Source: a virus (Duplodnaviria > Heunggongvirae > Uroviricota > Caudoviricetes). Taken from it: a stretch of DNA of 24,201 nt. Positions 690-24,201 of this stretch are shown in pieces (positions within the stretch are counted from its first letter, which is position 1; the number at the start of each line of letters is the position of its first letter). The notes beneath the pieces are model-generated. The model saw only the letters and a program-made list of their open reading frames with translations, did no database searches and was not told the DNA's origin. Made by a program: the position numbers and the translations under genes. The stretch is taken from the IMG/VR virus record IMGVR_UViG_2545824708_000017; one strand, written 5' to 3'.

Positions 690-1313
690 TCAGAATTTAT
701 AGCCGACACCCACGATGAAACCGTCAGTGCGCCAGTCGCCACTGCCGGAACCTTCATAAGCAAGGTCAATAACCACCGTCTCTACGGGACTGAACTGAAT
801 CCCGGCATTCCAGGCCGGCGACAGATGACGCGCAGTATGACCATCACTGGCGGTGGTGGTCTCCTTCACATACCCCGGTTTCACTTCATCACGCCGGTAA
901 TCCTGAACACTGTCAGACCAGCGGGTGTACGCCATCCCGGCCATGCCATAGAGACTGACCCGCTCACTGAGCTGCCAGACAGGGCCGGCCATCAGACTGA
1001 CATAACGACCGCGCAGGCTTTCATAATGGAAGGTATTTTCACCCGTCTTCATCGTGTCACTTTTCTTCACCGATGCATAACTCAGCGCGACAATGCCGCC
1101 CAGGTGATCCGTGAACTCATAACGGTATTTCACATTAATCCCTTTTAAATCACCTGCACGCGCACCGGTACCGGACAATGCCGGTACGCCGCCCGGGTGA
1201 ACCTGAGCATATCCCACGGAAAATGCACCGTGTCCGCTTTCAGCCTGTGCAGGAAGGGAAATGCCTGTCAGCAGTGCGGTCCAGAATAAAATGGCTCCGT
1301 ATAAATGTCGCAT
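690..1313 (-). CDS. lom: Outer membrane protein Lom (Ail/Lom/PagC family beta-barrel)
   Basis: 207-aa ORF with signal peptide; motifs GINVKYRYEFTD and C-terminal DLAYEGSGSGDWRTDGFIVGVGYKF match lambda Lom as recalled. Sits between J and stf as in lambda. GAGAGG Shine-Dalgarno 5 nt upstream. Confidence 0.9.
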   Translation of the reverse strand: MRHLYGAILFWTALLTGISLPAQAESGHGAFSVGYAQVHPGGVPALSGTGARAGDLKGINVKYRYEFTDHLGGIVALSYASVKKSDTMKTGENTFHYESLRGRYVSLMAGPVWQLSERVSLYGMAGMAYTRWSDSVQDYRRDEVKPGYVKETTTASDGHTARHLSPAWNAGIQFSPVETVVIDLAYEGSGSGDWRTDGFIVGVGYKF

Positions 1314-1380: not shown

Positions 1381-4300
1381 TCAGCTGATACTGATCCCTG
1401 CCGTGGATTTTTTCATGACCACAACCAGTAAATCACTGATGTACGTTGTCGGCGTCCAGTTGTTCGCACCGGCCGACGACACATTAAACGTCAGGGTGAC
1501 ATGACCCCGCCCTGCCGGCATATCTATCACCGATGAGAACACCCGGCTGACATCCGTTGCCGGTTCATGGAAAATCTCAACCCCGTTCTTCAGCACCTGC
1601 AGCTTACAGGTGGAATACCAGTACGACTGCTGATTCGGGCTGTTGAAATTCTGGTGTTTCGTCCCGTGAAACAGCACCGGGGGAATGATAATCTGCCGGT
1701 CGAATCCCTGGTCATCGTAAACTGTGACGGTTACCGTCCCGCTGGCATAACTGTTATTCCGGGGAAAGGCTTTCCCCACCGTCTTCACCAGGTCGCCTTC
1801 AATCTGGTTTGCAGACAGTTTCCCTCTGATGACACAGTTCTCGTTAATGGTGACATTATTGAGCGTGCCGGTATTCGCGGTAATTGCTCCGCTGATATCC
1901 GCGTTCCTGGCTGTCAGCTTCCCTTCCGGCGTCAGGGAAAACGTCGGGGGGTTGCCGGATGACGTGATACTCGCCGCAAACAGACGCTTCAGGAACACGT
2001 CGTTCATGAACAGCTGATTCCCCTGCGCCACAAATAACGGAGTGCTGTTGCCGCTCTCCGGATTTATCATCGCGATACGGTCAGCCAGCAGCAGTATGTT
2101 GCTCAGTGGCTGGCCATCAGTATCCTCAATCCCTGCACCAATCCCGGCCACATAGGGAATGCCGTCTTTCGTTTTTTGAACCTTCAGCATGTACAGCGCA
2201 GCCAGGTCATCATTTGTGTCCTTCTGCACGCGCTGTATCTGCTGAATGGTGGCGCTCTGGTCTTCCAGCGTTTTACTGACCGTCTGTGTGATTTCATTGC
2301 GGGTTTCGGTGATGGTGGTCTTCATCTCCGCCATCTCATCCGCAAGCTGGCTGTTGTCTATCAGCTCCCATAGCCCCTGAGCCAGATGCAGTTTTCCTAT
2401 TTTTTCCCGGAAAAATTCCAGATACCCTTCACCATCATTGCTGGGCTGCCCGCTGACTTCCACAAACGCAGATTTCCCCACCAGGTTGACGCTGCGCACG
2501 TAAAACCAGAAATCCTTCCCGGGCTTAATGTGCGGGCCGGATACACTCCACTGACTGCCGGTCCCCAGATAACGGGCAGAGGTTTCCACCTGAGATGTGT
2601 CTGCGATTTTTGCCTCCGAAAACCAGAACTCAAACTGTACCGTCGGGTCATACACCGCAAGACGCGGGACCGCCGTTATCTGAAAATACCCCGGCGTCAG
2701 TTCAATGGTGGCGGGTTTTGCTGGCGCGTTAATCTGGAAGGTGGTGGTGGCCGGTTCGCCCTGCTGGCCATAACTGTTAATTGCCCGGACGGTCAGGGTG
2801 TATTCCCCGAGCGGCAGACCACTGAAACGATGCTCTGTATCCGCAGTGATGGCGGTGGTCACCAGACGGCTGTCTTCTCCGCTTCCGTTGGTCAGGCGCA
2901 GACTGAAGCGCACACCCTTCACCACCCGCGGCGTGTCCCATTTCGCCTGTGCCAGATACTGACCGTCAGCCGCGCTCACCTCCACCGTCAGGTGCTGCAC
3001 AGCCGGCGGGATGACGCTGTTCAGCGAACCGGACAGTGGCTCAAAGCTGGCCCCGTTATCCACAATGGCTTCTTTTTCCGGTACGTGCTGCACCGCCGTG
3101 ATGGCAAAGGTGCCGTCCGTGTTTTCCCGGATGGAGACACAGCGGAACAGGCGACGACGCAGTGACGGCAGGGAGAGTCCCCATACACCGTATGTCTCCA
3201 CACCATCAGGCAGGGTGCTGACCTGTATCCGGTCCGGCGCGGGGTGTGCAGTGATGGCCACGCTCACCGGCTTACCGCTGCCGTTAATCAGGTTCACCGT
3301 GGCGGCACCTGTCTCCGGCAGGGTCACCTCACGGTCCAGTGTCAGGGTGCGGCTGGCGGCATCGATGGACAGGATACGTCCGCCGGTCATGGTCCCGGCA
3401 TAGTCGTTATCACAGATTTCAATAATGTCACCGGGTGTGTGACGCAGCCCCTGTGACCCGAGCGTGAAATCCACCGTCTGCGTTTCCAGCAGTCCGGTCT
3501 TTATCACCCACAGCCCGGCACGGTGGGCCTGACCGCGACTGGTGCAACCGAACGCATCCATCTTCAGCAGGTTGCGCCCGTAGCGCAGTATGGCTTCCGG
3601 GTCTTCCACCAGTTCCGTGGAGGTCTGCCAGCCGTTCTGCGGGTCGGTGTAATTCACCTCCACCGCCGTGTGACGGTCCTTCAGGGCGCTGAAGCTGTAG
3701 CGAAACCCCACGCCGTTATCATCCACCACCACATCGCAGTTGGTGTACGGCCACACCACATCCGACGGGCGGTCCTGAACGAACGTCAGCGTCTGGCCGT
3801 TCCATACCGGCATACAGCGCATCGCCGAGCAGAAATCACTGAGCACATCCCATGCCTTACGCTGTTGTGACAGGTACGCATTAAAGGTCATCCGCGGCTC
3901 TGTGCCCCCGAAACCATCCGGGACCGTCTGGTCGCAGTACTGCCCGATGGCATACAGCGCCCACTTGTCCACATCCGCCGCCCCCAGACGTTTTCCCATG
4001 CCGTAACGCGGGTGAGTCAGCATGTCCCACAGGCACCAGGCCGGGTTGTTGCTGTATGCCGGTTTCAGGCTGCCGTCCCAGATACCACTGTACGTGCGTT
4101 TTTCCGGGTCATAGTTTGACGGCACCTGAATAATGCGACCGCGGATATGGTAGTTCACCGTCATCTGCTGACCGCCAAACTGCTCCGCATCCACCTGCAG
4201 CCCCACAATCGCCGTGTTCGGGTAGCACTGTTTCACATCGATGATTTCGGTGTATGACGACCAGAGCGTCTTATTCTGCAGCTGGTCCGAGGTGCTGTCC

Positions 4301-4857
4301 GCTGTCTCCCGGACCATCCGGATGTTAAAGGGCCGCTCAGGCAGATTCTCCAGAATCACCGACGCCAGGTACTGTGAGGTGGTCTTGCCGTTAATGGTGA
4401 CATCCTTTTCCGTCACCCAGTTACCGTTACGCTGCAACTGAATCAGCAGTCGGACAGAAGAGGGATTACGGTCGCCCTTTGAGGTGGTCTCCAACAGTGA
4501 CTGCACCCCGAAGGTGACCCGCAGGCGGTCAATGTTCGCGGATGTAATGGTGCGCGTTACCGGCTTTGCCTTCGTCACTTCCACGCCCAGTCCGGTTTCA
4601 GCTCCGGAGGACTCAAAGCCTTCCGGTGGTGTCTGCTCCTGCTCCCCGGCGCGCCAGACCGCGGTCACACCGTGTATCACAGGATTGCCGTCCGTGTCCG
4701 TCAGCGGGGTTTTGTTCACCAGGATACTCTGCAGCCCCTTCACCGGGCCTTCTATCGGTCCCTCACCAATCGCATCAATCACACTCATCATCTGCGTGGA
4801 TTTGAGATTATCCTTCGCCTCTCGAGGCGTGTGCGCCCTGCCGCCACCTTTGCCCAT
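1381..4857 (-). CDS. J: Tail tip / host specificity protein J (central tail fiber)
   Basis: 1158-aa ORF. N-terminus [39 protein letters not shown] and long internal stretches (e.g. [37 protein letters not shown]) match lambda gpJ (about 1132 aa) from memory. The C-terminal ~150 aa diverge from lambda. Confidence 0.93.
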
Positions 4858-4990
4858 AATGTTCCTCTCAATTGGTATTATTAATCGCAGTGATAGGATA
4901 TTGCACAGCTATTGCGCGATATCATCAGAACGCTGTTTGTTACCCTGTAACCAGCAAGCTCAGTCTGTTAACGGAATTAATGAGGGTTTT

Positions 4991-5518
4991 ATGAAATGTA
5001 AAATCATTGCTGCCATTGCCATGCTGACAGCAGCATCATGCGGATACGCAGCAGAACAGGAAGTCCCAATGAACCTTGTCAGTGCTGACGGAAAAGAAGT
5101 CAGCATTGGAAAAATAACCATTCAGGAGACCCCCTACGGTCTGCTGTTCACACCAGCCCTTCACTCTCTGTCTGAAGGCATTCATGGTTTTCATGTGCAC
5201 GAAAAAGGAAATTGCGCCCCGGCACTGAAAGACGGAAAACCGGTCGCAGCATTATCGGCTGGGGGTCACTTTGACCCGAAAAACACCGGCAAACATCTTG
5301 GCCCCTGGTCTCCGGATGGACACCTGGGCGACCTCCCTGCGCTGTTCGTGACGCATGACGGAAAAGCGAACTACCCGGTCCTGGCCCCGAGACTGAACTC
5401 ATTAAAAGAGATTAAAGGGCGTTCTCTCATGCTTCATGCTGGCGGTGATAACCATCATGACCATCCGGAGCCCCTGGGCGGTGGTGGTGCGAGAATGGCC
5501 TGCGGCATCATTCAATAA
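4991..5518 (+). CDS. sodC: Periplasmic Cu/Zn superoxide dismutase (SodC), prophage-borne
   Basis: 175-aa ORF from ATG 4991 (GAGGG Shine-Dalgarno at 4982-4986); N-terminal signal peptide [20 protein letters not shown]; Cu/Zn-SOD motifs [39 protein letters not shown]. The track ORF 4484..5518 includes a spurious 5' extension antisense to J. Lower GC than flanking tail genes. Confidence 0.9.
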
Positions 5519-5526
5519 TCAGTCAG

Positions 5527-5556
5527 GTAAGGGGCGGGCCCCTTACCTTTATTCCT
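5527..5556 (+). terminator. Rho-independent terminator after sodC
   Basis: ggtaaggggc(5527-5536)/gccccttacc(5539-5548) inverted repeat followed by tttattcct. Confidence 0.55.
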
Positions 5557-5666
5557 CAGGACGATAAATCCTTTCTCCCTGAAAAGAACGGCACATCCTC
5601 CCTCTCTGAGTTAATGTTTTTGTCGTGACATAAGAATAATTCCTTACACTCAATCTTCGTAACGCT

Positions 5667-5710
5667 CCCGCAGTTCCTGTCCGTGAGCACTGCGGGATTT
5701 TTTCGCTTTT
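5667..5710 (+). terminator. Second hairpin with T-run at I/sodC boundary (possible backup terminator)
   Basis: cccgcagt(5667-5674)/actgcggg(5689-5696) stem with 14-nt loop, followed by attttttcgctttt. Plus-strand orientation; overlaps the 3' end of I. Confidence 0.3.
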
Positions 5711-6389
5711 ATGCCTGCCGCCCGATAACCACGACCTTTCCGCCCCCGCCTTCATCACGGGTACTGATGTCCTGGGATATACGGCGGGAGCCAACCAGCA
5801 TTTCCCCGTAAGGCACCGGCATCGGGTTACCCTGGGCAATCATGTTGTCCAGTGACGAAAAATACGTGTTCTGTCTGCCGTTATCCGTGCTTTTGTACTC
5901 CGGTACTTTAGCCTTCGGGGCCAGCATCTGAGCCACACCACCCAGAATCATGCTGGCCCCCAGAGAAAACAGCATCGTGGTGGCAGAAAAACCACCGGCT
6001 GCCAGGGCTGAACCCCATAACGCCATTGATGCCCCGGCAGTGAAGAAAGAGCCCACGATGGCTGCCGCCCCCAGCACAATCTGCAGTCCACCCTTTCCGG
6101 CCCCGGCCAGTCGCGGCACAATGTGGATGACCGTTCCCTCACCCAGCTGTTCGTGAAGACGGGCGTACACCGCCTCCGGTGCCGTGTCCTCACCGCGAAT
6201 ACGTATCTGGTACCAGCCTTCGTTCATCTGACGGCGGAATCCCGGCATCTGCATCGACAGGGCACGGATGGCTTCCGCTGCCGTGTTCACATACAGGCTG
6301 AGGCGGCGGCCAAATCGTTGTAAATCCCCGTGAAGGCAGATGCGTGCCAGTGGCGGTGACGCCAGACAGAATGCGTTCGTCGTTGCCAT
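5709..6389 (-). CDS. I: Tail tip assembly protein I
   Basis: 226-aa ORF; MATTNAFCLASPPLARICLHGDLQRFGRR and NTYFSSLDNMIAQGN...YGEMLVGSR match lambda gpI (223 aa) as recalled. Overlaps the 3' end of K by about 100 nt. Confidence 0.85.
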   Translation of the reverse strand: MATTNAFCLASPPLARICLHGDLQRFGRRLSLYVNTAAEAIRALSMQMPGFRRQMNEGWYQIRIRGEDTAPEAVYARLHEQLGEGTVIHIVPRLAGAGKGGLQIVLGAAAIVGSFFTAGASMALWGSALAAGGFSATTMLFSLGASMILGGVAQMLAPKAKVPEYKSTDNGRQNTYFSSLDNMIAQGNPMPVPYGEMLVGSRRISQDISTRDEGGGGKVVVIGRQA

Positions 6390-7030
6390 TTTTCGGAATA
6401 CCTCTCCCGTTTACTCAGTTGTTCAGGCAGATGGTGAAGCAGTTCACCGTTGCCGCAGTAAATGGCGGCATGATTGGCCACCGATGCGCCAAAGCAGCAC
6501 AGCAGGATATCGCCCGCCTGTGCAGAGGACAGGGGCACCCGGTAAAAGCCGGTGACCGCCATATTGTCCAGGTAAAGGTTCTGACCGTTGCGCCACCAGT
6601 CATCCTCACGCTCAAAATCCGGCATATCAATTCCCGCCAGATGGTATGCATCCCGGAACAGCGTGTAACAGTCCGTCACCCCGTGCTCAAAGCGCCGTCC
6701 TGTCAGATGTGGCACACAGCGGAATTTGTGAATGTCACCCCGGCAGACCAGCCACCAGGGCAGTGCGCTTTTTATCTGCAGCCGCCGGTCAGCCTCGCTC
6801 AGCCAGGGCAGTCCACCGGGATGACTGTGGACCAGTGCCACAATCTCCCCCTGCATCTCTGCCCGCAGCCAGTCTTCCGGTGCGATACGAAAATACGCCT
6901 CCGGCTCTGCAGAGATATTCACACAAGGGATATACCGTTCCCCCTCCGGCGTGCTTATCACGAAGCCGCACGACTCCGCAGGCGCACACCGCCGGGCATG
7001 CGCCAGAATCGCTGATTCTGTCTGTGTCAT
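6287..7030 (-). CDS. K: Tail tip assembly protein K (JAB/MPN-like N-terminal and NlpC/P60-like C-terminal domains)
   Basis: 247-aa ORF; HARRCAPAESCGFV, EIVALVHSHPGG (MPN-like HxH), and Cys/His region GVTDCYTLFRDAYH...NHAAIY. Lies between L and I as in lambda. Exact start uncertain. Confidence 0.85.
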   Translation of the reverse strand: MTQTESAILAHARRCAPAESCGFVISTPEGERYIPCVNISAEPEAYFRIAPEDWLRAEMQGEIVALVHSHPGGLPWLSEADRRLQIKSALPWWLVCRGDIHKFRCVPHLTGRRFEHGVTDCYTLFRDAYHLAGIDMPDFEREDDWWRNGQNLYLDNMAVTGFYRVPLSSAQAGDILLCCFGASVANHAAIYCGNGELLHHLPEQLSKRERYSEKWQRRTHSVWRHRHWHASAFTGIYNDLAAASACM

Positions 7031-7035
7031 TGGAT

Positions 7036-7734
7036 TTACTGCGAAAGTTTGTTAATGGAAAGGAAACCGCCAAAATTAGCCACCATGCCGCGCATCTCAC
7101 ACCCGCGCATGCACTTGCTGCATCTGTCCTTACGGATATCCGTGGTGGGGTTGTCGAACTCATCCGCCACCGCAGGACCGTTATACCCGCATTCATCTCC
7201 CCGGTAATCCCACATACAGGTGTTCGCCAGCATGATGCGACCGGGAAACAGCGCTCCGTCCGTCTCCGTCGGTGTTGCCAGCACAAACGAGGCTGTCATG
7301 GCCGTCAGCTCTGACATCTGCTCCACCACCCAGCGGTCGCTCAGCTCCTGCTCCGGGTCCGCTTCCGGATTGCCCGCCACAAAATTCACCGCATCCAGAA
7401 AACGGGCATACACCCGGCGGCGGACCACCGTGGCCCCCACCAGGCTCTGCAGGTCCTCCGCCATTCCGGTGACCAGACCGAACAGATTGGACACCGTCAG
7501 CGACGGGCGGGCACTGCTGCCCTTCCCGTTCATCTCAAAGCCACTGCCGTCAATCGGGTATGCCTGATATTGCCGCCCCTGCCAGGTAACCGCCTCCCCT
7601 TTTTCATTCAGCTCATTGCAGAAAAAATACCGCTCACCACCCTGTACCGTCAGGTCGATTTCCCAGAGTACCACCCGCGGTGACTGCTCTGATTTAACCG
7701 ACTCGTTCAGACTTTCTTCGTGAATATCCTGCAT
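7036..7734 (-). CDS. L: Minor tail protein L
   Basis: 232-aa ORF, same length as lambda gpL; Cys-rich C-terminus (CSKCMRGCEMRG). Follows M. Confidence 0.88.
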   Translation of the reverse strand: MQDIHEESLNESVKSEQSPRVVLWEIDLTVQGGERYFFCNELNEKGEAVTWQGRQYQAYPIDGSGFEMNGKGSSARPSLTVSNLFGLVTGMAEDLQSLVGATVVRRRVYARFLDAVNFVAGNPEADPEQELSDRWVVEQMSELTAMTASFVLATPTETDGALFPGRIMLANTCMWDYRGDECGYNGPAVADEFDNPTTDIRKDRCSKCMRGCEMRGMVANFGGFLSINKLSQ

Positions 7735-8063
7735 CAGTTCACCACCTGCTTAAACTCCGCGCTGAATTCAACCCGCAGCATGCGAACCCGTGATGACCAG
7801 GCGGCACAGGTCACCTTTATCTGCCGCCAGGCATAAGGCGGTGTCCACAGAAACGCCTTCCAGCCACCGTGCTCTGCCAGGAATGCCTCCAGATGTCGGG
7901 CCTCCTCCCGGGTCACGGAAAGCGTCACACGGTATGTTTTCAGGTCAGCATTCAGCCCCGCCGCCATACGCTGCGAATACCCGTCACCAAAACGCACTTC
8001 ACGCACCGATGGCTGCGAGTTCACCTCCATATCCGGCTTCACTTTCCAGCGAAATGTTTTCAT
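7734..8063 (-). CDS. M: Minor tail protein M
   Basis: 109-aa ORF, same length as lambda gpM; sits between H and L with 4-nt overlaps typical of translational coupling. Confidence 0.88.
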   Translation of the reverse strand: MKTFRWKVKPDMEVNSQPSVREVRFGDGYSQRMAAGLNADLKTYRVTLSVTREEARHLEAFLAEHGGWKAFLWTPPYAWRQIKVTCAAWSSRVRMLRVEFSAEFKQVVN

Positions 8064-10639
8064 CGCCTGCCTCCGGAAAAGACGCCGCCATCACGCATCT
8101 GCGCCTGAATCTCATCCTGCGCCCCCTTGCGGGCCATGTCATACACCGCCTTCATCAGCTGCGGCCCCGCCTGTCCGTTGGTGCCGTCGTTCTGAATCAC
8201 CACGTGATTGTTCTGATTAAAACTAATGCCTTCCGCCCGCCGCATCTGCGCCGGACTTCCGGCACCGCCCACATAACCACCTTCCGCATACCCGCGCATC
8301 AGACGATACAGGTTGCCGACGCCAATCCGGCTGGTTGCCTCCTTCGTGAAGACAAACTCCCCGCGGTGGACAATACCGGCAGGTTCGTATTTGCCACCGG
8401 TTCCCGTAAATCCTCCGGTCGCGAAATGGAAGTTCGCCGCCGCAGCCTGAATGGCCGTCCCCGTGGAGGCAGACGCCCCACCACCGAAAGCACCACCCAT
8501 GGCGCTGCCAATACTCCCGACAATCCCCACCATGGCCTGCTTCAGAAAAATCTCTGTCAGCATGGAGAGCACAGAACGGGTGAAACCACGCCAGCTCTGT
8601 TCGCTGCCGGTCAGCATCGCTGCCATATTCTGTGCAATACCGTCAAAGGTCTGCGTGGCCACGCTTTTAACCTGCGAAAAACTGTCCGTCGCACTTTCTG
8701 CCCACTCGCCCCAGCCGGACTTCAGACCGGCCATCCAGCTTCCACGAAGCTGCTCCTCCGCAGACCAGGTGTTCTTCAGTGCAGATGTGGCCTTCGCCAG
8801 CGCATCCGGATTATCACCGTACACGTCACGAAGGCGCTGCTCTTCCGACTCCCGCTGCGCCTGACGGTCGGTGAGTCCGCGGGCTTTTGCGCTGATTGCC
8901 GCCTGCTTCGCACTCTGCTGCTGTTCAAACCGCGCAGCCTGCTGTGCCAGCTCATTCAGCCGTTTCTGGTGTTCAACTTTGTCTCCCAGCTCAGCCAGCT
9001 GGCGTTTGTACTCCAGCGTCTCTTTCTCATGGGTCAGCAGGGATTTTTCCTGCTCAGATAACTGCCGTTTCGTGGCTGCCTCTTTCAGGACCGCATACTG
9101 ATTTTCCGCTTTCCATAAATCGCGACGCTGCTGGCTGATTTTCTCATTCGCACCGCTGTGTTTTTCCAGCGTCCGGAGCTCGGTTTCAAGCGCCAGCAGG
9201 GCAGCATGCGCCTGGTCTTCCTGACGCTCACCGGCTGACACTTTGACTCCTGACGACTTCGGCTTTTTCAGCGTCGATTCATAATCCTTTTTCGCCGCCG
9301 CCATCAGCGTGTTGTAATCCGCCTGCAGGATTTTCCCGTCTTTCAGGGCCTTATTCAGTTCTTCCTGACGGGCGGTATATTTCTCCAGCGGCGTCAGCAG
9401 ACGCTCATACCCCTTCTGCGCCTCTCCGGTATACTTCAGCTGTGATGCGTCCCGTTCGGCCCGGTCCCTGGCGGCCAGTTCACCGGCTTTTTCCATATCC
9501 GACTGCAGCGTGGCCGCTGCCAGCCCCAGCCGGGCATTTTCCCGGTCATTCCATGCGCCCTGAAGGTTGGCCCGGAAAGAAGAGGTTTTACCGCGGCGCT
9601 GGCTCCGGCTCTGGTACCACTGCCATTTTTTATCCGCCTCATCAAATGCCTTCTGCGCACTGGCGAGCATATCCGCTGAGGACTCAGGACGACCGATATC
9701 CAGAATGGCATCCCACATCGATTTGAATGCCTTCCCGGTTTTATCCGCCCAGGTCTCCAGTGTCCCCATGTTTTCTTTCAGGCGACGGGTCTGCTCATCA
9801 AAGCCTTTCGTGGCGATATCGTTCGCCGCCTGTAAGGCCCCGGCCTCATCACCGGAACGCTGCAGCTGCGCAACATACGCAATCTGCTCTGCCGTCACGT
9901 TACGGAACTGGCGCGCCATCGCAATCAGCCCCGACGTAGAGTCGGTGGTCAGTTTTCCGAAAGCCTCTGCAACCTTGTCCACCTCCACACCGGATGCAGA
10001 AGCAAAACGCGCGACACTCTGGTTGATGGCATCAAACTGTTCACCACCACGCACACCGGCATTCACCAGGGCTGCCAGTGACTCACTCGCCTGGTTAAAC
10101 GTCAGCCCTGCGGCCTGTCCGGCTCTGGAGAGCGTCAGCATGCGATCGGCAGTCAGTCCGGACTGATTACCGGAAAGAACCAGGGTTTTATTAAACGCTG
10201 AAAGCGTGGAATCCCCCTGGTACCAGGCGTACGCCAGCGCACCTGTCGCCACCGCCAGCGAGGTGACCCCGACCATCGGCAGGGTGATCGCACCGGCAAG
10301 CCCCCTGAACATGGGGATCATCCCGCCGAAGGAGTCCTTCACCTGACCGCCCTGTTGCAGCAGGATCAGCCAGGGATTCTGACCACCGGCAAGCTGCGTG
10401 GCGATATCCGTAAACTGTGCGGGCAGGGTTCGCATGGCCGCTTTATACTGCCCGACGGAAATCCCGGCTTTTTGTGCAGCCAGCGCCTGGCGGCTCAGGC
10501 CCTGTTCAACAGCACTGGCGGTTTTTCTGGCGTCGGTATCCAGACCTGAAAAATGACGCCTTACCCGGCTCATCTGCTCATCGAAACGGACCGCATCCAG
10601 ACTAAGGTCAATAACAAGATCACCAACCGGCTGGGACAT
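8060..10639 (-). CDS. H: Tail tape measure protein H
   Basis: 859-aa ORF (lambda gpH is 853 aa) with long coiled-coil/Ala-Gln-rich centre and Gly-rich C-terminal region; follows G/T. Confidence 0.9.
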   Translation of the reverse strand: MSQPVGDLVIDLSLDAVRFDEQMSRVRRHFSGLDTDARKTASAVEQGLSRQALAAQKAGISVGQYKAAMRTLPAQFTDIATQLAGGQNPWLILLQQGGQVKDSFGGMIPMFRGLAGAITLPMVGVTSLAVATGALAYAWYQGDSTLSAFNKTLVLSGNQSGLTADRMLTLSRAGQAAGLTFNQASESLAALVNAGVRGGEQFDAINQSVARFASASGVEVDKVAEAFGKLTTDSTSGLIAMARQFRNVTAEQIAYVAQLQRSGDEAGALQAANDIATKGFDEQTRRLKENMGTLETWADKTGKAFKSMWDAILDIGRPESSADMLASAQKAFDEADKKWQWYQSRSQRRGKTSSFRANLQGAWNDRENARLGLAAATLQSDMEKAGELAARDRAERDASQLKYTGEAQKGYERLLTPLEKYTARQEELNKALKDGKILQADYNTLMAAAKKDYESTLKKPKSSGVKVSAGERQEDQAHAALLALETELRTLEKHSGANEKISQQRRDLWKAENQYAVLKEAATKRQLSEQEKSLLTHEKETLEYKRQLAELGDKVEHQKRLNELAQQAARFEQQQSAKQAAISAKARGLTDRQAQRESEEQRLRDVYGDNPDALAKATSALKNTWSAEEQLRGSWMAGLKSGWGEWAESATDSFSQVKSVATQTFDGIAQNMAAMLTGSEQSWRGFTRSVLSMLTEIFLKQAMVGIVGSIGSAMGGAFGGGASASTGTAIQAAAANFHFATGGFTGTGGKYEPAGIVHRGEFVFTKEATSRIGVGNLYRLMRGYAEGGYVGGAGSPAQMRRAEGISFNQNNHVVIQNDGTNGQAGPQLMKAVYDMARKGAQDEIQAQMRDGGVFSGGRR

Positions 10640-18576: not shown

Positions 18577-18779
18577 AACCTCACTCCCAGCGGACGACGG
18601 CGACGTCGGGTTGTCCCCAGTACCGACTCCGCATCATTGATCGCCCGGTTAAGCTCATCCAGAGAAGCCGCCGTATATTCAATTCTGCGACCATCTTTCT
18701 GGACAGACACCACCCGTTTACCGGTTAATAAATCAAGGCGCGCCTGACGTAGCGCCTGTAGTTCAGCGACTGTAACCAT
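18573..18779 (-). CDS. W: Head-tail connector / head completion protein W
   Basis: 68-aa ORF; LLTGKRVVSVQKDGRRIEYTA...RRRRRP matches lambda gpW (68 aa). Confidence 0.9.
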   Translation of the reverse strand: MVTVAELQALRQARLDLLTGKRVVSVQKDGRRIEYTAASLDELNRAINDAESVLGTTRRRRRPLGVRL

Positions 18780-20691
18780 TCACTCCTCCGGACAGCTTCG
18801 CTGCCAGTTCTTTCAGGGTTGGCCGGGTCGTCTCTTCTTCCCGGGATTTTGCCAGTACAGCCAGATCAAGCTGCCAGCGTTGCACGGACACACGTAATGC
18901 CGCGTAGGCATACACCAGGCAGTCCAGCGCTTCGTTACGCCGCTTTTTGTTATCCCACAGCAGACGCATCTTTCCTTTTTCCCACTTCTCCACAAGCTCT
19001 TCCGCGACCAGTTGCTGCGCCTCTGTCTGCGAAAAAATCTCCGGATCATCAGGAAAACGGATGGCATACGACGTGGCTTCATCCGCAGGAGGGGGATCGG
19101 CTTTCATACGGGCATAGAGAATTTCTTTTGCGGTGTCCGTCCCCACTTCACACAGATACACGCCCCGCTGATTGCGGGTTTTCGGCATGGTGATCACCGG
19201 CTTGCCATAGACAGATGCGCCTTTTACCGGCAGCACCCGGAAAACACCGTGTTTTTTTGACCTCTGATAGACAATTTCACCATCGATCCCCCCGGTGTCC
19301 CAGCAGACACGGGAAATGGTCATTTCGGTTCCGTCTGCATGGCAGTATTTTTTGTTGATCGCCGCATCCACACGTAACAGCGTCTCTTCCTCATCGGGAC
19401 GGCCCATAATGATGATTTTATCCACCAGAAAGGCTTCCTCTCCCTGTGCCCATCCCCAGACATACATCTCAAAACGGTTTCGCTGCGAGTCAATGCCCGC
19501 CGTCAGATAAACCACCCGGGCAGGCACCGCCGCCGTGTAACGCACCACCTTATCCATCAGTACCTGGTGATCGAGTTTTTCGCCCACGGCCTCTTCCCAG
19601 GTCTCGCCCAGCGTGGTGTTCACAAAGGTTTTCAGGCCGTTGGGATCTTTCAGTGCATCCAGCCAGTCATAGACTATCTGTATCCAGGTGGTGAACGGAC
19701 TGTACGCCGTCCAGATATGGAACGTGATGGAGCGCGGCGGCGGAATTTCATCCCCCCGGGCGCTGAAAAACATCAGGCCGTCACGGGTCCACATACCCGT
19801 GTTTTCACAGATCCAGCGCCCGTTACTCTGGTCAAGCTCAGACTGATGGATCACGCAGCCATGATGTTCACAGAGGTAGAAAACGCTTTCGGGGCTGTCC
19901 TTCTCCCATTTAAGGCCAAAAGGCGTGGATTCATCGCCAAATTTCAGATACTGCGCCTCCCCACAGTGCGGGCAGGGCACATAGAAACGCATGAAATGCG
20001 CCGACTCGTTGGCCGCTTTTTCGATCTGGCAGGTACCTTTGATTTTAGGCGTCGAGCCGCGAATGGATTTTGGCCATACAGAGCCCTCAATACGCTTATC
20101 CCCCAGCAGGGTTGGCGAGCCCTCTTTTTCGACATCCGGCTCGAACGAGGAAAGTTCGTCATAGCAGACCACGTCCACGGATTTTTCACGGTAGTTTTTG
20201 GCGGCAGCGCCGCCCAGGCACCAGAAACCGACGCCCGATGAAAAGCGTTTCAGCGTGAGAGTATTGTCACGATGTTTACGACCCAGCCATGGGGAAAGGT
20301 CTTTCAGGCATGGCACGTTCCGAATCGTCGCCTCCACGTGAGACTTCATAAAATCTTCAGCGGCAGAATCCGTGGGCTGAAAAAGCAGACTGTTTCGGGA
20401 TTTATGCTCAATAAAATACCCGACCACCCCCAGCAACATCTTTGTATAGCCAACACGGGCAGATTTAATCAGGTTAACCGTGCGAACCTGGTCGTTACCC
20501 ATACAGTTCATAATGGCGATCTGGAATGGCAGCGTTTTCCATTCGCCCTCACCATATGAAGATTCTTTAGGCAGATAATAATTTTGATCAGCCCATTCAA
20601 CTGCCGTCATTGGTACAACCCTGACCAGAGGCTGCAGCGCAACCGAAACGGCAGCCATCATATTATTCAGTTGTTGCTCTGATATATTCAT
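18763..20691 (-). CDS. A: Terminase large subunit A
   Basis: High similarity to lambda gpA throughout (TAVEWADQNYYLPKES, KSARVGYTKMLLGV, Walker-like region, FHIWTAYSPFTTW, CWDTGGID, RRNEALDC). Start placed at MNISEQQLNN (642 aa; lambda 641 aa, starts MNIS...) rather than the track start at 20748; overlaps the Nu1 3' end by about 29 nt, as in lambda. Confidence 0.93.
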   Translation of the reverse strand: MNISEQQLNNMMAAVSVALQPLVRVVPMTAVEWADQNYYLPKESSYGEGEWKTLPFQIAIMNCMGNDQVRTVNLIKSARVGYTKMLLGVVGYFIEHKSRNSLLFQPTDSAAEDFMKSHVEATIRNVPCLKDLSPWLGRKHRDNTLTLKRFSSGVGFWCLGGAAAKNYREKSVDVVCYDELSSFEPDVEKEGSPTLLGDKRIEGSVWPKSIRGSTPKIKGTCQIEKAANESAHFMRFYVPCPHCGEAQYLKFGDESTPFGLKWEKDSPESVFYLCEHHGCVIHQSELDQSNGRWICENTGMWTRDGLMFFSARGDEIPPPRSITFHIWTAYSPFTTWIQIVYDWLDALKDPNGLKTFVNTTLGETWEEAVGEKLDHQVLMDKVVRYTAAVPARVVYLTAGIDSQRNRFEMYVWGWAQGEEAFLVDKIIIMGRPDEEETLLRVDAAINKKYCHADGTEMTISRVCWDTGGIDGEIVYQRSKKHGVFRVLPVKGASVYGKPVITMPKTRNQRGVYLCEVGTDTAKEILYARMKADPPPADEATSYAIRFPDDPEIFSQTEAQQLVAEELVEKWEKGKMRLLWDNKKRRNEALDCLVYAYAALRVSVQRWQLDLAVLAKSREEETTRPTLKELAAKLSGGVNGYSR

Positions 20692-21172
20692 CGAGTAAAT
20701 CCGGTAATTTATCCCCTGCCCGCGCACACTGATTTGCCCCCTTAGCAATAAGGGTTTTCAGATGGTCAAGATGGCGCGGTGTTAAATCAGGAAACTGTCG
20801 CTGCATGGATAAAGGGATGGAATCAAGCGTACTGGATAACGCCATTGCCAGCTTACTGAGGGCAAAAATACAGAACCCGGTGTCAATAAGTTTTCCTTTT
20901 GACACCTCATTTTTTAACTGCTGTGTAACAGCCTGTTCTGCTGTCAGTTCCCATCTGGCAATAAGCAATTTCTCCTCATAGTCGTCTTCGCTATCGCCAT
21001 CAGGCACATCGTTTTTACTTCTCCTCAGATACGATATGTAAAAATCGCGCCAGGCATCCAGATCCAGTTGCCCTCGCTTATTCGATATCGGGGCACCCGG
21101 CAATTTCTGCAATCTGCGAAGCTGGCGATCGGTCAGACTTAAATGCCTGGCAACTTCAGTCTGCGTAGCCAC
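20663..21172 (-). CDS. Nu1: Terminase small subunit Nu1
   Basis: 169-aa ORF from a GTG start; C-terminal half (DTGFCIFALSKLA...LSMQRQFPDL..RHLD.LK) matches lambda Nu1; N-terminal helix-turn-helix (TQTEVARHLSLTDRQLRRL) differs from lambda. First gene after cos. Confidence 0.8.
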   Translation of the reverse strand: MATQTEVARHLSLTDRQLRRLQKLPGAPISNKRGQLDLDAWRDFYISYLRRSKNDVPDGDSEDDYEEKLLIARWELTAEQAVTQQLKNEVSKGKLIDTGFCIFALSKLAMALSSTLDSIPLSMQRQFPDLTPRHLDHLKTLIAKGANQCARAGDKLPDLLDEYIRATTE

Positions 21173-21574: not shown

Positions 21575-21799
21575 ATGTCATCAAAGAACAGAACCCGCAG
21601 AACAACAACCCGCAACATCCGATTTCCAAACCAGATAATTGAACAAATTAACATCGCTCTTGACCTGAAAGGTTCAGGTAATTTTTCAGCGTGGGTTATT
21701 GAAGCCTGCAGAAGAAGATTAATTAATGAAAAATATTCTCAATTTGTACCCAACAAAGACAAACACGACCAGAGCACCTGTTCAGACAGGTTTACTTAA
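21575..21799 (+). CDS. YlcI/YnfO-family small protein (DUF3950-like), prophage-encoded
   Basis: 74-aa ORF; N-terminus MSSKNRTRRTTTRNIRFPNQIIEQINIAL...GSGNFSAWVIEACRRRL closely matches E. coli prophage YlcI/YnfO as recalled; these lie next to cos/terminase in lambdoid prophages. Confidence 0.6.
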   Translation: MSSKNRTRRTTTRNIRFPNQIIEQINIALDLKGSGNFSAWVIEACRRRLINEKYSQFVPNKDKHDQSTCSDRFT

Positions 21800-21880: not shown

Positions 21881-22195
21881 TTAGCATTTTTTTGACCGCG
21901 CGTTTCCGGACGTATTCTGTTCTCCTGTCCCTTTATATCGTCGGAATACCCGCCGCTCTTCAAATCCCATTCCCAACTCAGAATGTAGTCTGTTGACCGC
22001 TTGTTTTATTTCGGTCAGGTTCACCGGTGAAACCGGAGTCCGGCGCGCCTTACGCAAACACTCTGCTCGTTTCTGTGCCGCCACTTTTCTTTTCTGGTCA
22101 TCACTTAGCTGTACCATCACTTTTGCCCATCGTTCAGCTGCTCTCCGGTACAGTCCTTTTTTCTCCAGACATTCTGCCACGTGATCATGTAGCAT
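21881..22195 (-). CDS. PerC-family transcriptional regulator homolog (Pch-like)
   Basis: 104-aa basic ORF with strong GGAGGT Shine-Dalgarno 5 nt upstream; N-terminal AECLEKKGLYRRAAERWAKVM resembles the conserved PerC/Pch N-terminal motif (recall only). Occupies the position where lambda carries bor. Confidence 0.5.
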   Translation of the reverse strand: MLHDHVAECLEKKGLYRRAAERWAKVMVQLSDDQKRKVAAQKRAECLRKARRTPVSPVNLTEIKQAVNRLHSELGMGFEERRVFRRYKGTGEQNTSGNARSKKC

Positions 22196-22659: not shown

Positions 22660-23127
22660 TCACGGTATACACTGGGTACGGATATATTCCTGTGCTCCTT
22701 CCAGTTGCTTCTGCATTGCCATCAGCCGTTCTCTGAGGATGAAATAATCCCGTTCAGCGGTGTCTGCCAGTCGGGGGCCGGTTGCATTATCCACGCCGGA
22801 GGTGCCGGTGGCTTCACGCACGGTACCGGAGCAGGTGGCGTTGATCCGCAGGCGCTTACGACCAGCGGCAACATCAGCACGCAGAGTTTCATTTTCAGCT
22901 CTCGCATCGGCTAATTCCCTCGAGTATCTGGCATCAAGTGCAGCGACATCACGCTGGCGTATCTGCATATCAGTAATTGTCGCGTTCGCCAGCTCCAGCT
23001 CACTGGCTTTTTTATCGCGCTGCTCTTTGTAGATGATGGCGTGATCACGGTAATGATTCAGCCCCAGACTAAGCGCACCACAGGCCACCAGCAGGACAAT
23101 GATAACCACGCACAGAACACGGTTCAT
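22660..23127 (-). CDS. Rz: Inner-membrane spanin Rz
   Basis: NHYRD..I.YK.QRDK, ITDMQ.RQRDVAALDA, LRERL.AMQKQLEG match lambda Rz. Start placed at MNRVL (155 aa; GGTGGTGA Shine-Dalgarno) rather than the track start at 23184. Confidence 0.85.
   Translation of the reverse strand: MNRVLCVVIIVLLVACGALSLGLNHYRDHAIIYKEQRDKKASELELANATITDMQIRQRDVAALDARYSRELADARAENETLRADVAAGRKRLRINATCSGTVREATGTSGVDNATGPRLADTAERDYFILRERLMAMQKQLEGAQEYIRTQCIP
22722..22907 (-). CDS. Rz1: Outer-membrane spanin Rz1 (lipoprotein, embedded in +1 frame of Rz)
   Basis: 61-aa ORF wholly inside Rz; lipobox LVVSAC; Pro-rich CVKPPAPPAWIMQPAPDWQTPLNGIISSSE matches lambda Rz1. Confidence 0.75.
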   Translation of the reverse strand: MRELKMKLCVLMLPLVVSACGSTPPAPVPCVKPPAPPAWIMQPAPDWQTPLNGIISSSENG

Positions 23128-23128
23128 A

Positions 23129-23242
23129 TCACCACCAACGGATTGCCCAGACCAGAACAGCAATGGCCACAATACGAATGGCAAAAGCTGCCGCTCTTGT
23201 TAAATCCAGACTGGCTGGCGTCTCCACTTCAATGCCTTTCAT
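23129..23242 (-). CDS. Hypothetical 37-aa membrane peptide, translationally coupled to Rz (speculative)
   Basis: My translation gives MKGIEVETPASLDLTRAAAFAIRIVAIAVLVWAIRWW with one predicted transmembrane helix; GAGG Shine-Dalgarno about 9 nt upstream; TGA stop 1 nt before the Rz ATG. Below the track's length cutoff. Confidence 0.2.
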   Translation of the reverse strand: MKGIEVETPASLDLTRAAAFAIRIVAIAVLVWAIRWW

Positions 23243-23462: not shown

Positions 23463-23957
23463 CTATCTGTCGATGTCCCAGCACGCCAGCGCGCTCTCCT
23501 GGTCACGCCGTGAGACCTGACCGTAGCAATTATTTGAACGGATACGGCAGTCTCTGCCACCGTCCTTAATCCACCAGCGAATCGCCTCACAGGCACCTTT
23601 TCGATCGCCTGCATTAATTCGTTTATAAAACGTCGACGGGAAGCACTTACCGGGGCCAATGTTGTACGGACAGAATGACGCGATCCCCGCTTTCTGGGGT
23701 TCGGTCAGCGGCACCCGGATGTTTTTCTCCACCCATGCCAGCGCCTTGTCACGTTCGATGGCATTAACCCGGTCGCATTTTTCCTTTGACAGCTTCATGC
23801 CAGGAATAACAGGCTTACCATCCACCAGAATGGCACCACGGCAGATGGTCCAGATCCCCGCACCATCACGGTATGCCGTGGTGTGGTTACCTTCCTTTTC
23901 ATCCAGAAACTGGTCGAGGATTTCAGGCGCAGAAGCACCTGCACCAATCAGCGCCAG
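23463..23957 (-). pseudogene. R: Phage endolysin R (lysozyme family), 5' end truncated by IS1 insertion
   Basis: Reading frame is open from the IS1 boundary (...LALIGAGASAPEILDQFLDEKEGNHTTAYRDGAGIWTICRG...) to the stop at 23463, with no start codon for the hydrophobic N-terminus; the in-frame stop just upstream is IS1's own. C-terminus CYGQVSRRDQESALACWDIDR resembles endolysins of 933W-like prophages. Confidence 0.75.
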
Positions 23958-24201
23958 GGTAATGACTCCAACTTACTGATAGTGTTTTATGTTCAGATAA
24001 TGCCCGATGACCTTGTCATGCAGCTCCGCCGATTTTGAGAACGACAGTGACTTCCGTCCCAGCCTTGCCAGATGTTGTCTCAGATTCAGATTATGTCGCT
24101 CAATGCGCTGAGTGTAACGCTTGCTGATAACGTGCAGCTTTCCCTTCAGGCATGATTCATACAGCGGCCAGCCATCCGTCATCCATACCACGACCTCAAA
24201 G
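23958..24201 (-). mobile_element. IS1 insertion sequence, one terminus plus insB 3' end (partial; continues past window end)
   Basis: ggtaatgactccaacttactgatagtgttttatgttcagataatgcccgatgac is the reverse complement of the IS1 terminal inverted repeat; the adjacent ORF encodes the InsB C-terminus. Confidence 0.9.
23973..24201 (-). CDS. insB: IS1 transposase InsB, C-terminal part (partial)
   Basis: [72 protein letters not shown] matches IS1 InsB C-terminus from memory. Confidence 0.9.

Follow-up and report, generated by a model that had tools for sequence, protein, structure and literature searches.

We found that the spacer between the tail genes I and J of this prophage very probably (we put it at about 90%) consists of two units that lie on the plus strand, antisense to the late operon: a sodC gene carried as a moron and a resident small RNA (sRNA) gene of the PasB family. 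The sodC gene is already known: it has been annotated and biochemically characterised as an accessory gene in prophages of the EHEC/EPEC type. What is new is confined to one detail, namely that a hairpin previously taken for a second sodC terminator appears, from alignment with relatives, to belong to the neighbouring PasB-family sRNA gene, whose promoter is missing here. The features are collected in Table 1, with positions counted in the window, that is, the whole 24,201-nt stretch of DNA that was analysed.

Table 1. Features of the I-J region in the window, with the basis on which each was called
Feature	Position	Strand	Basis
Tail tip/host-specificity gene J, 1158 aa	1381-4857	-	ORF, translation, Pfam
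sodC upstream region, 39.8% GC; J RBS on the minus strand, sodC promoter region on the plus strand	4858-4990	+	sequence, PWM scan
sodC (SodC-F type), 175 aa; coordinates include the stop codon	4991-5518	+	ORF, Pfam, PDB, alignment
Predicted intrinsic terminator of the sodC cassette	5525-5554	+	fold, terminator scan, both sodC alleles
3′ spacer of the sodC cassette and junction with the backbone	5555-5602	+	six-way alignment, PWM
Putative resident PasB-family sRNA module, ~105 bp, antisense to the tail operon	5603-5705	+	sodC-less relatives, PasB/EcOnc22-24 slot, fold
Tail assembly gene I	5709-6389	-	Pfam Lambda_tail_I 6.4e-16

The product of J contains seven GpJ-type Pfam domains (E values from 1e-23 to 1e-41, several of them 1e-38 to 1e-41). 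The gap between I and J measures 851 bp (4858-5708), compared with 60 bp in lambda (I end 15444, J start 15505), in agreement with the original prediction that about 850 bp separate two genes that are adjacent in lambda. The left edge of this variable spacer is the J start codon, and on its right side the I stop codon (5709-5711) adjoins the U-tract of the second hairpin, the sRNA terminator. GC content is 49.6% over the whole gap, 57.7% in J and 59.6% in I. The lower GC content noted earlier is therefore real, but it is found mostly in the 5′ half of sodC and in the non-coding parts: the sodC coding sequence has 52.8% GC, with 48.5% in its first half and 57.2% in its second. GC3 is 0.51 for sodC, 0.71 for J and 0.66 for I. 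Between positions 4600 and 6000 we counted six terminator-like sites, compared with 1.3 ± 1.2 in shuffled sequences. Neither of the two hairpins described below has a U-tract on the minus strand, and late transcription from I to J should therefore pass through the spacer. At the right end of the window the endolysin gene is truncated by IS1, and the prophage looks defective.

Two hairpins follow sodC on the plus strand. The first has a GC-rich stem of 10-11 bp with 11-nt perfect arms (5525-5548) followed by TTTATT (-18.3 kcal/mol, z -2.27), and its U-tract is short and interrupted (UUUAUUCC); the immediate terminator predicted at 5527-5556 was thus essentially right. Its stem is kept with a different loop in a second sodC allele (GGTAAGGGG-AGCTGC-CCCCTTACC). 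The second hairpin has its arms at 5666-5674 and 5689-5697, followed by six T residues at 5698-5703 (-16.1 kcal/mol, z -2.58). The original prediction placed it at 5667-5710 and counted both hairpins as terminators of sodC itself. Both structures are found, and the first travels with sodC in the two alleles, but the second (5666-5703) is also present in relatives without sodC and would belong to the sRNA module and not to the sodC cassette.

The segment 5603-5705, which includes this hairpin, occurs without sodC in 21 IMG/VR loci and in PhiR5_1, with 96% conservation, and it matches about 740 further E. coli genomes without the sodC cassette. Comparison of the I-J junction with relatives lacking the insert, as the original prediction had proposed, shows that the module and its promoter remain there while sodC is absent. 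In these sodC-less relatives the module is preceded by a near-consensus sigma-70 promoter, TTCACA-16-TATAAT, which has a PWM score of 13.5 in PhiR5_1. The corresponding place in the window is the junction stretch 5555-5602. We aligned this spot in the window, Sakai Sp4, L061, PhiR5_1, E2348/69 and Sp15/14/11, and found that in the window the -35 element is absent and the -10 element reads ATCCTCCCT instead of TTATAATTT, which is also the case in Sakai Sp4; the PWM maximum at this spot is 6.35, compared with 13.5 for the intact promoter. In the rare second sodC allele (L061, L068), an intact PasB-type promoter is found downstream of that allele's own sodC terminator. Because L061 and L068 keep both units, the sodC cassette and the sRNA module are separable.

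The I-J slot is occupied by validated RNAs in other prophages. PasB of E2348/69 is an expressed Hfq-dependent RNA of the 83-85 nt size class (PMC8550237), and so is EcOnc22 (PMC4104026 Table S2). PasB (1466261-1466343, minus strand) lies in prophage PP6 between I (end 1466255) and J (start 1466496). EcOnc22-24 map to the I-J slot of Sakai Sp15/14/11 after correction for an offset of about +130-146 nt between versions of the Sakai genome, calibrated at 1.94 and 3.49 Mb only. The window module shares its slot, its orientation and the 83-85 nt size class with PasB of EPEC E2348/69 (Pearl Mizrahi et al. 2021, PMC8550237; Zhu, Shabalina and Storz 2026 bioRxiv), and the I-J slot, the antisense orientation and the size class with EcOnc22/23/24 of EHEC Sakai (Tree et al. 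2014, PMC4104026). In all of them the module lies in the I-J spacer, antisense to the tail genes, with an intrinsic terminator beside the I stop; the terminator CTGCGGGATTTTTT that adjoins the I stop is common to them, as are the cores AAnAAnAAnTCC and ATCTTC. The window module also has an A-R-N-type repeat, ATAAGAATAAT (~5630-5640), next to its conserved ATCTTC core, and the PasB northern probe matches PhiR5_1 at 20 of 23 nt. Synteny, orientation, promoter position, core motifs and terminator together suggest that the module belongs to the PasB/EcOnc22-24 family. It differs from these RNAs in that the window copy has no promoter and its body is about 65-70% identical: against E2348/69 PasB, this identity outside the terminator comes from a multiple alignment, while a strict local alignment spans just the 24-nt terminator arm.

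Rfam returned no match for the window at the gathering threshold or for the sodC-less locus L002 at E<=1, and it has no PasB model; hits to AgvB, AsxR and STnc100 were confined to the Sakai calibration loci. An RNAalifold consensus of four variants of the family contained just the terminator and showed no covariation. An sRNA of the AgvB/AsxR type was ruled out, as those sit downstream of Q/PR′ and not in the tail region. PasB, EcOnc22-24 and the window module may, as a side observation, form one family in a single conserved prophage slot. We found no statement linking PasB and EcOnc22-24 as one family in PMC8550237, PMC4104026 or Zhu, Shabalina and Storz 2026 bioRxiv, and sodC beside PasB or EcOnc22 is unmentioned in the same three sources; the source table for PasB gives no EHEC homologue. 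The I-J spacer in these phages is a small mosaic hot-spot that is normally home to an antisense Hfq-dependent sRNA (PasB/EcOnc22-24).

In the window allele the place of the resident sRNA promoter has been taken by the sodC cassette, and the sRNA copy is predicted either to be silent or to arise only when transcription reads through from sodC. Extended to the species, a tentative proposal is that the arrival of sodC displaced the PasB-family promoter, and that in about 10% of E. coli genomes the sRNA may be off or may exist only as a sodC read-through or 3′-UTR product. Whether the module could still be a working sRNA, expressed via sodC read-through, as a 3′-UTR product or from an unrecognised promoter, with its expression now coupled to sodC, is a possibility we regard as rather doubtful. 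The short, interrupted U-tract of the sodC terminator is compatible with such expression, the module shows the same degree of conservation as the flanking genes and keeps its terminator and A-R-N/ATCTTC core intact, and more than 500 genomes have the identical, fixed junction. This conservation, however, may just mirror recent spread, and the stem of the first terminator is strong (10-11 bp, GC-rich, -18 kcal/mol). Furthermore, the published Hfq-CRAC peak list holds no peak by sodC in Sakai Sp4/Sp10 while the sodC-less copies of Sp11, Sp14 and Sp15 are listed, although this list was filtered for distance from coding sequences and the missing sodC-side peak is therefore weak evidence. In either case, the second terminator would serve at least as a back-up stop that keeps plus-strand transcription out of I.

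The alternative proposed originally, that a single sodC cassette with two terminators of its own makes up all of the ~850 bp, is very improbable. Both hairpins do have the same orientation and lie 3′ of sodC, and they always accompany it in 540 or more genomes at >=99% identity. This reading does not sit with the last ~105 bp, hairpin 2 included, being 96% conserved in loci that have no sodC and carry a strong promoter of their own, with the match of the module to ~740 further genomes that lack the cassette, or with the occupation of the I-J slot by an experimentally validated sRNA.

With the spacer read as two units, the true insert is estimated from the alignments at ~735-745 bp (4858 to ~5590-5602); it would have replaced ~135 bp of a 240-bp resident spacer, for a net gain of 611 bp. 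Direct or inverted repeats flanking the cassette, which would hint at transposition or site-specific insertion, were looked for and not found. The cassette shows the features of a moron, namely presence or absence between I and J, a terminator of its own and a deviant composition, and we consider it to be a moron with its own predicted promoter region, RBS and intrinsic terminator. A Shine-Dalgarno sequence, GAGGG, precedes sodC at 4982-4986. A strict consensus promoter scan of 4600-6000 gave no sites; the best sigma-70-like candidate 5′ of sodC is TTGGTA-16-TAGGAT at 4872-4899 (PWM 7.6, above the 99.9th percentile of the window), which the second sodC allele preserves only in part. A 32-nt upstream block, CTATTGCGCGATATCATCAGAACGCTGTTTGT, is identical in the second allele L061. 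A PhoP-box-like repeat was sought by eye in the conserved block TGTTTG-N5-CTGTAA and rejected, its second half-site being poor and unconserved. Previous work has shown that a 299-bp fragment upstream of sodC-F drives lacZ independently of RpoS, and that sodC-F is expressed in log phase and in anaerobiosis (PMC2569942). A 19-nt stretch of 84% pairing was also seen between sodC codons ~30-36 (5080-5098) and the terminator loop of the module (5674-5692), and both sodC-linked loop substitutions raise this pairing; we treated it as chance, because the duplex energy of the whole molecules was reached by 156 of 300 shuffled modules and the pairing is not conserved in the second allele.

The gene itself can be identified, by its sequence, as the already known and characterised phage-borne SodC-F gene of pathogenic E. 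coli. Its product matches Pfam Sod_Cu (PF00080) over profile positions 3-133 of 133 with an E value of 3.9e-32 (111.9 bits, cut-off 28.9), and in the PDB it matches bacterial SodCs, among them Salmonella SodCI (1eqw) and E. coli SodC (1eso), with E values of 1e-56 to 1e-63. In an alignment with human SOD1, SodCI and SodCIII, the Cu ligands H68, H70, H93 and H149, the Zn ligands H93, H102, H111 and D114 and the active-site R168 are invariant. Residues H68, H70, H93, H102, H111, D114, H149, R168 and C171 correspond to human H46, H48, H63, H71, H80, D83, H120, R143 and C146. The disulfide cysteine C171 is invariant, and C76 is present in all four bacterial sequences, its equivalence resting on position in the bacterial motif G(N/S)C since MAFFT shifts human C57 by a loop gap. 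The protein begins with a predicted signal peptide (aa 1-20) with a basic n-region, a hydrophobic core and a G-Y-A cleavage motif at the signal peptidase I site GYA|AE, and its leader contains a lipobox, AASC (aa 14-17, nt 5030-5041). The original prediction of an intact plus-strand Cu/Zn superoxide dismutase with a signal peptide is borne out by the Pfam match, the full set of ligands and the near-identity to SodC-F: the 175-aa product clearly resembles Cu/Zn SODs, the metal-binding histidines and disulfide cysteines whose loss would have pointed to decay are all kept, and decay was not seen.

Export, the lipobox and partial lipidation with membrane association have been demonstrated experimentally for SodC-F with an identical leader (PMC2569942). 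SodC-F is dimeric, very stable and partly lipid-anchored and contributes to H2O2 resistance (D'Orazio et al. 2008, PMC2569942), with a specific activity of 19380 U/mg for SodC-F1 (PMC2569942). Since the sequence is intact and a 99-100% identical protein was tested there, the steps of expression, localisation and enzyme activity are taken from that study. In a lysogen the late operon would be silent and sodC would rely on a promoter of its own, which does not depend on RpoS. The pre-protein would be exported by Sec, after which part would be cleaved by signal peptidase I to give a soluble periplasmic form and part would be lipidated at Cys17 and anchored in the membrane. The enzyme would bind Cu and Zn, dimerise and dismutate superoxide in the periplasm, and in this way shield the host from exogenous oxidative attack. 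That sodC is instead a decaying passenger, a pseudogene or an inactive enzyme, is the least credible of the alternatives: the IS1 insertion in the endolysin gene and the L112P change within the conserved GHLGDLP motif of the Sakai Sp4 copy speak for it, but the window gene is full-length with its RBS, metal ligands, Arg and Cys kept, has the consensus L112, encodes the same protein (100% identity) as the records of complete Stx2a-phage genomes, and lies in a cassette that is >=99% identical over 540 records.

The closest known system is ECs_1120 of Sakai Sp4 (SodC-F, O157:H7), which is identical at 174 of 175 aa, with L112 in the window and P112 in Sakai sodC_1. There, sodC likewise lies between I and J on the opposite strand and encodes the AASC lipobox, and the upstream region, the terminator and the junction are identical to the window. 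Across O157:H7 strains including EDL933 (SodC-F1/SodC-F2, lambdoid prophages), the cassette DNA is 99.8-99.9% identical; unlike the O157:H7 source of SodC-F, the host of the window is not necessarily O157. SodCIII of Salmonella Fels-1 (STM0924) sits in the same slot, with a gpI and a gpJ homologue on either side, on the opposite strand, with ~175 aa and 60% identity, but its DNA is unrelated, its stop lies 53 bp from the I stop, no PasB-like module is present, a lambda-type hairpin is kept beside J, and its signal peptide has no Cys. SodCI of Salmonella Gifsy-2 (STM1044), the classical SOD of prophage-borne virulence, is also a prophage moron of the tail cluster on the opposite strand (59% identity, dimeric type, with a Cys in the signal peptide), but its slot is between a gpL homologue and a Lom-like gene that follows gpM, and not I-J. 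Gifsy-2 SodCI is regulated by PhoPQ. Like lambda-type morons such as lom and bor, the window sodC is a gene added between conserved neighbours, has a terminator of its own and an atypical composition and is probably expressed in the lysogen, and it differs from them in facing against the late operon and in lying within the tail-assembly block instead of at its end. The moron concept goes back to Juhala/Hendrix, as cited in PMC4104026.

The sodC cassette was found in 547 of 5426 complete E. coli genomes at >=80% coverage, with 540 records at least 99% identical, and in two Stx2a phages whose SodC protein is 100% identical. Among phage records, 145 have matches to the flanking I and J sequences alone, and sodC is present in 2. 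The I-J junctions in IMG/VR fall into classes of 764 nt and of 150-160 nt, and the relatives are otherwise collinear, differing just in the presence or absence of the cassette. The best matches to the whole window are non-O157 isolates at 98-99%. A search of genome contigs with the SodC protein, with one genome per species, found only chromosomal SodCs of other genera (Serratia, Pseudomonas and others) at up to 69% identity and no further prophage copies.

Prophage-borne SodC had been called an established virulence factor in both Salmonella and E. coli O157. For Salmonella prophage SodC a role in virulence is supported (review PMC4712152), but for E. coli O157 the claim is overstated: sodC-F mutants are H2O2-sensitive, and the gene is differentially regulated and of greater relative abundance inside Caco-2 cells (PMC2569942), while no animal virulence data for O157 were found in PMC2569942 or PMC4712152. 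The sodC of the window is accordingly mainly a marker of its prophage lineage.

The useful outcome of this analysis is a corrected anatomy, in which the common sodC allele sits directly on the PasB-type promoter. This physical linkage matters for work on the regulation of the PasB family and on the regulation and 3′ end of sodC-F, and the rare L061-type allele, in which both units are intact, provides a natural comparison. If read-through from sodC does produce the sRNA, production of a regulatory RNA of the phage would be tied to the expression of a gene for defence against oxidative stress.

The late region of a lambdoid prophage makes up the window and reads on the minus strand; all of the elements that the original prediction had placed between tail genes I and J are present, essentially at the positions it had given them. 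The two genes are separated by 851 bp, compared with 60 bp in lambda, and an ORF of 175 aa (sodC) lies in this gap with GAGGG four bases 5′ of its ATG. A first, GC-rich hairpin (terminator 1) followed by TTTATT is found 3′ of sodC, while a second hairpin is followed by T6 and its end abuts the I stop codon. Terminator-like sites are enriched around the gap (6 versus 1.3 ± 1.2 in shuffles). GC content is below that of the flanking genes, as had been noted, both for the whole gap (49.6%) and upstream of the ORF (39.8%), and GC3 is 0.51 for sodC versus 0.71 for J and 0.66 for I, though the 3′ half of sodC (57% GC) is close to its neighbours.

Coordinates of features in the window
Feature	Position	Strand	Remark
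Lom	690-1313		
J	1381-4857	-	
J-I gap	4858-5708		
sodC	4991-5518	+	
First hairpin (terminator 1)	5525-5548	+	stem
Module (backbone unit)	5603-5705	+	
Second hairpin	5666-5674 / 5689-5697	+	arms
I	5709-6389	-	
K	6287-7030		
L	7036-7734		
Tape measure	8060-10639		
Terminase	~18763-21172		
DUF3950 ORF	21575-21799	+	YlcI/YnfO-like
PerC-family gene	21881-22195	-	Pfam PerC 3.8e-44
Rz	22660-23184		
Phage lysozyme ORF	23463-23825		Pfam profile positions 27-125 only; at right end of window, apparently cut by IS1
IS1 transposase fragment	23973-24191		

The PerC-family gene, for a Pch-like transcriptional activator, sits between Rz and the small terminase gene and, together with the DUF3950 ORF on the opposite strand, represents more cargo typical of EHEC/EPEC prophages; in strain B19374, the closest relative, nleB2 follows the tail fibre genes. 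The likeness of the lysozyme ORF to relatives ends at ~23957, where the IS1 fragment starts. IS1 appears to have cut short the endolysin gene, and therefore the prophage may be lysis-defective.

The sodC ORF covers the whole Pfam Sod_Cu profile (3.9e-32) and hits bacterial SodCs of known structure, Salmonella SodCI and E. coli SodC among them, at 1e-56 to 1e-63, which bears out the predicted Cu/Zn superoxide dismutase. Its N-terminus is a signal peptide, also as predicted, with an SPase I site (GYA/AE) overlapping a lipobox (AASC). In an alignment with human SOD1, Gifsy-2 SodCI, Fels-1 SodCIII and a second prophage allele, all catalytic residues are invariant, namely the Cu ligands (H68, H70, H93, H149), the Zn ligands (H93, H102, H111, D114), R168 and C171, whose disulfide partner in the bacterial proteins is C76; no ligand has been lost. 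No residue differs from the annotated SodC of the Stx2a-converting phages Stx2_EH2201 and Stx2_EH1846 (100% identity), and 174/175 residues are shared with sodC_1 (ECs_1120), which has the same two tail genes on either side in Sakai prophage Sp4. The Sp4 protein (L073 42681-43205) carries P112, where the window and every other aligned SodC carry L112. Residue 112 is part of the conserved GHLGDLP motif and falls between the Zn ligands H111 and D114; presumably this substitution is the one by which F1 and F2 differ according to D'Orazio et al. The 853-bp segment is found at a coverage of at least 80% in 547 of 5426 complete E. coli genomes (540 records at least 99% identical), with serotypes including O157:H7, O111, O103 and O145. 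In Salmonella, Fels-1 sodCIII (60% identity) has the same I-J slot and orientation, whereas Gifsy-2 sodCI (59%) has its place elsewhere among the tail genes, with the L homologue on one side and a Lom-like gene on the other. Besides these prophages, the nearest homologues in a one-genome-per-species collection are SodCs encoded on the chromosomes of Serratia and other genera (at most 69%).

Judged by its sequence, the product is the SodC-F of D'Orazio et al. 2008 (PMC2569942), who described two near-identical prophage copies in O157:H7, one residue apart. A 299-bp upstream fragment gives RpoS-independent expression, and SodC-F is detectable anaerobically and in log phase, whereas chromosomal SodC is not; the SodC-F to SodC ratio goes up inside Caco-2 cells. 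The AASC lipobox splits the protein between membrane and periplasm. SodC-F is dimeric, about three times as active as SodC and far more stable to heat, protease and chelators, and sodC-F deletion mutants are more sensitive to H2O2 (PMC2569942). A review presents it as a textbook example (PMC4712152). Thus neither the gene nor its product nor its location in a prophage is new, and the core of the original prediction is correct; calling it an established virulence factor for E. coli exceeds what these two papers show.

Next, we examined the junction. We found 145 phage records that match the I and J flanks only and have no sodC, and compared one such relative, PhiR5_1, in detail. A 28-mer taken from towards the right end of the gap also retrieved 65 IMG/VR loci, which we classed by the distance of this 28-mer from the J start: 764-765 nt in 37 loci (sodC as in the window), 150-160 nt in 21 (no sodC), and, in one locus each, 813 nt (L061, second sodC allele), 254 nt (L018, different filler), 1515 nt (L009, L018-type filler plus an IS-like insertion) and 1643 nt (L062, apparent mis-assembly). 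Sequences with and without sodC part right after the J start codon and rejoin at ~5598-5603 of the window, which corrects the boundary of the insert and indicates that the second hairpin, together with the rest of the last ~105 bp of the gap, is backbone. Of the two terminators that had been assigned to sodC, only the first goes with it, its stem being also present in the second sodC allele; the second is present without sodC. From the J start, the sodC-less spacer (240 bp) contains a hairpin with a minus-strand U-tract resembling that of lambda's I-J spacer, a plus-strand promoter (TTCACA-16 nt-TATAAT or AATAAT; PWM score 13.5, far above other nearby sites), ~95 nt with the terminator at their end, and the I stop.

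Immediately upstream of J, lambda (L005 1446-1505), Fels-1 (L004 4850-4900) and sodC-less E. coli phages all retain a hairpin that has its U-tract on the late strand; the window sodC allele has lost this hairpin. The L018 filler, a third kind, has a plus-strand hairpin and U-tract (AAACCCCGGTATCAGCAGATACCGGGGTTTTCTTTC) upstream of an intact PasB-type promoter; in L009 this filler is split by a ~1.26 kb insertion, IS-like in appearance, and in locus L043 an IS-end-like sequence abuts CACATCCTCCC, just right of the expected position of sodC. The I-J spacer is a small mosaic hot-spot. In the L062 contig, the sodC 3′ end, module and I gene occur twice and the two copies are joined via an N, which looks like an assembly artefact, not a true duplication.

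PasB is an 83-nt Hfq-dependent sRNA, northern-validated in EPEC E2348/69 and annotated at NC_011601.1 1466343..1466261, minus strand (PMC8550237, Table S6). With the end of I at 1466255 and the start of J at 1466496 in E2348/69, PasB falls in exactly the slot of the module and has its orientation. PasB has the same upstream promoter sequence and terminator arm as the sodC-less backbone unit, and its northern probe matches PhiR5_1 at 20/23 positions. Sakai prophages Sp15, Sp14 and Sp11 have sodC-less I-J spacers of 240 bp, for which EcOnc22/23/24 are listed on the plus strand; these RNAs are ~85 nt on northern and destabilised in a delta-hfq strain (Tree et al. 2014, PMC4104026). Their peaks, at +22 to +84 from the J start in old Sakai coordinates, move to ~+155 to +225, over the body of the predicted RNA, with a shift of ~+137 nt that was calibrated at two places only (AgvB1, +137 ± 9, at 1.94 Mb; STnc100/EcOnc06, consistent, at 3.49 Mb). 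The STnc100 and AgvB pairs, back to back and convergent in Sp10 and Sp17 (L076 728-982, L158 887-1139; Rfam 145 and 96 bits), served solely as calibrators. The window module, PasB and the Sp15-type RNA have in common AAnAAnAAnTCC (an A-R-N-type repeat), ATCTTC and the terminator; outside these cores they are only ~65-70% identical, no Rfam model matches any of the three, and no covariation was found among four family sequences. On synteny, architecture and partial sequence similarity, we call the window module a putative PasB-family member.

In the window and identically in Sp4, the segment with the -35 element is absent, ATCCTCCCT replaces TTATAATTT at the -10 position, and a PWM scan of the window found no alternative promoter with a good score for the module. 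In the second sodC allele (L061, L068; 81% aa identity, lipobox ATSC), terminator 1 has the same stem and another loop, and ~50 nt on there is an intact TTCACA-16-TATAAT promoter with the module. It is a rare allele, with about 6 records at an identity of 99% or more; the whole module matches 1281/5426 genomes. Together, the intact promoter behind the second allele and the missing -35 in the common one show that the sodC and sRNA units are separable and that the sRNA promoter has been lost from the common allele. Next to sodC, neither Sp4 nor Sp10 has a listed Hfq-CRAC peak, a weak negative owing to the filters of that study.

A 19-nt stretch of sodC coding sequence (5080-5098) is complementary at 16/19 positions to the loop and 3′ arm of the PasB-like terminator (5674-5692), and the two loop substitutions separating sodC-linked from sodC-less modules both raise this pairing. 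Shuffles gave whole-molecule duplexes just as good, and the pairing is not conserved in the second sodC allele; it is probably due to chance.

No flanking repeats of the sodC cassette were found, and illegitimate or homologous recombination probably brought it in, as with other morons. On the minus strand neither hairpin is followed by a U-tract, which would let late transcription run on into J, and both plus-strand terminators would keep antisense transcripts from entering I and K. Terminator 1 has a short U-tract (UUUAUUCC), and the PasB-like RNA would be either silent or produced by transcription that reads through this terminator.

Taken together, the sequence shows an intact sodC, and published work on SodC-F indicates transcription independent of the late genes and a dimeric Cu,Zn-SOD that is exported, is in part anchored by lipid, and shields from exogenous oxidants. 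This study corrects the boundary of the insert and links the gap to the PasB/EcOnc22-24 sRNA slot.
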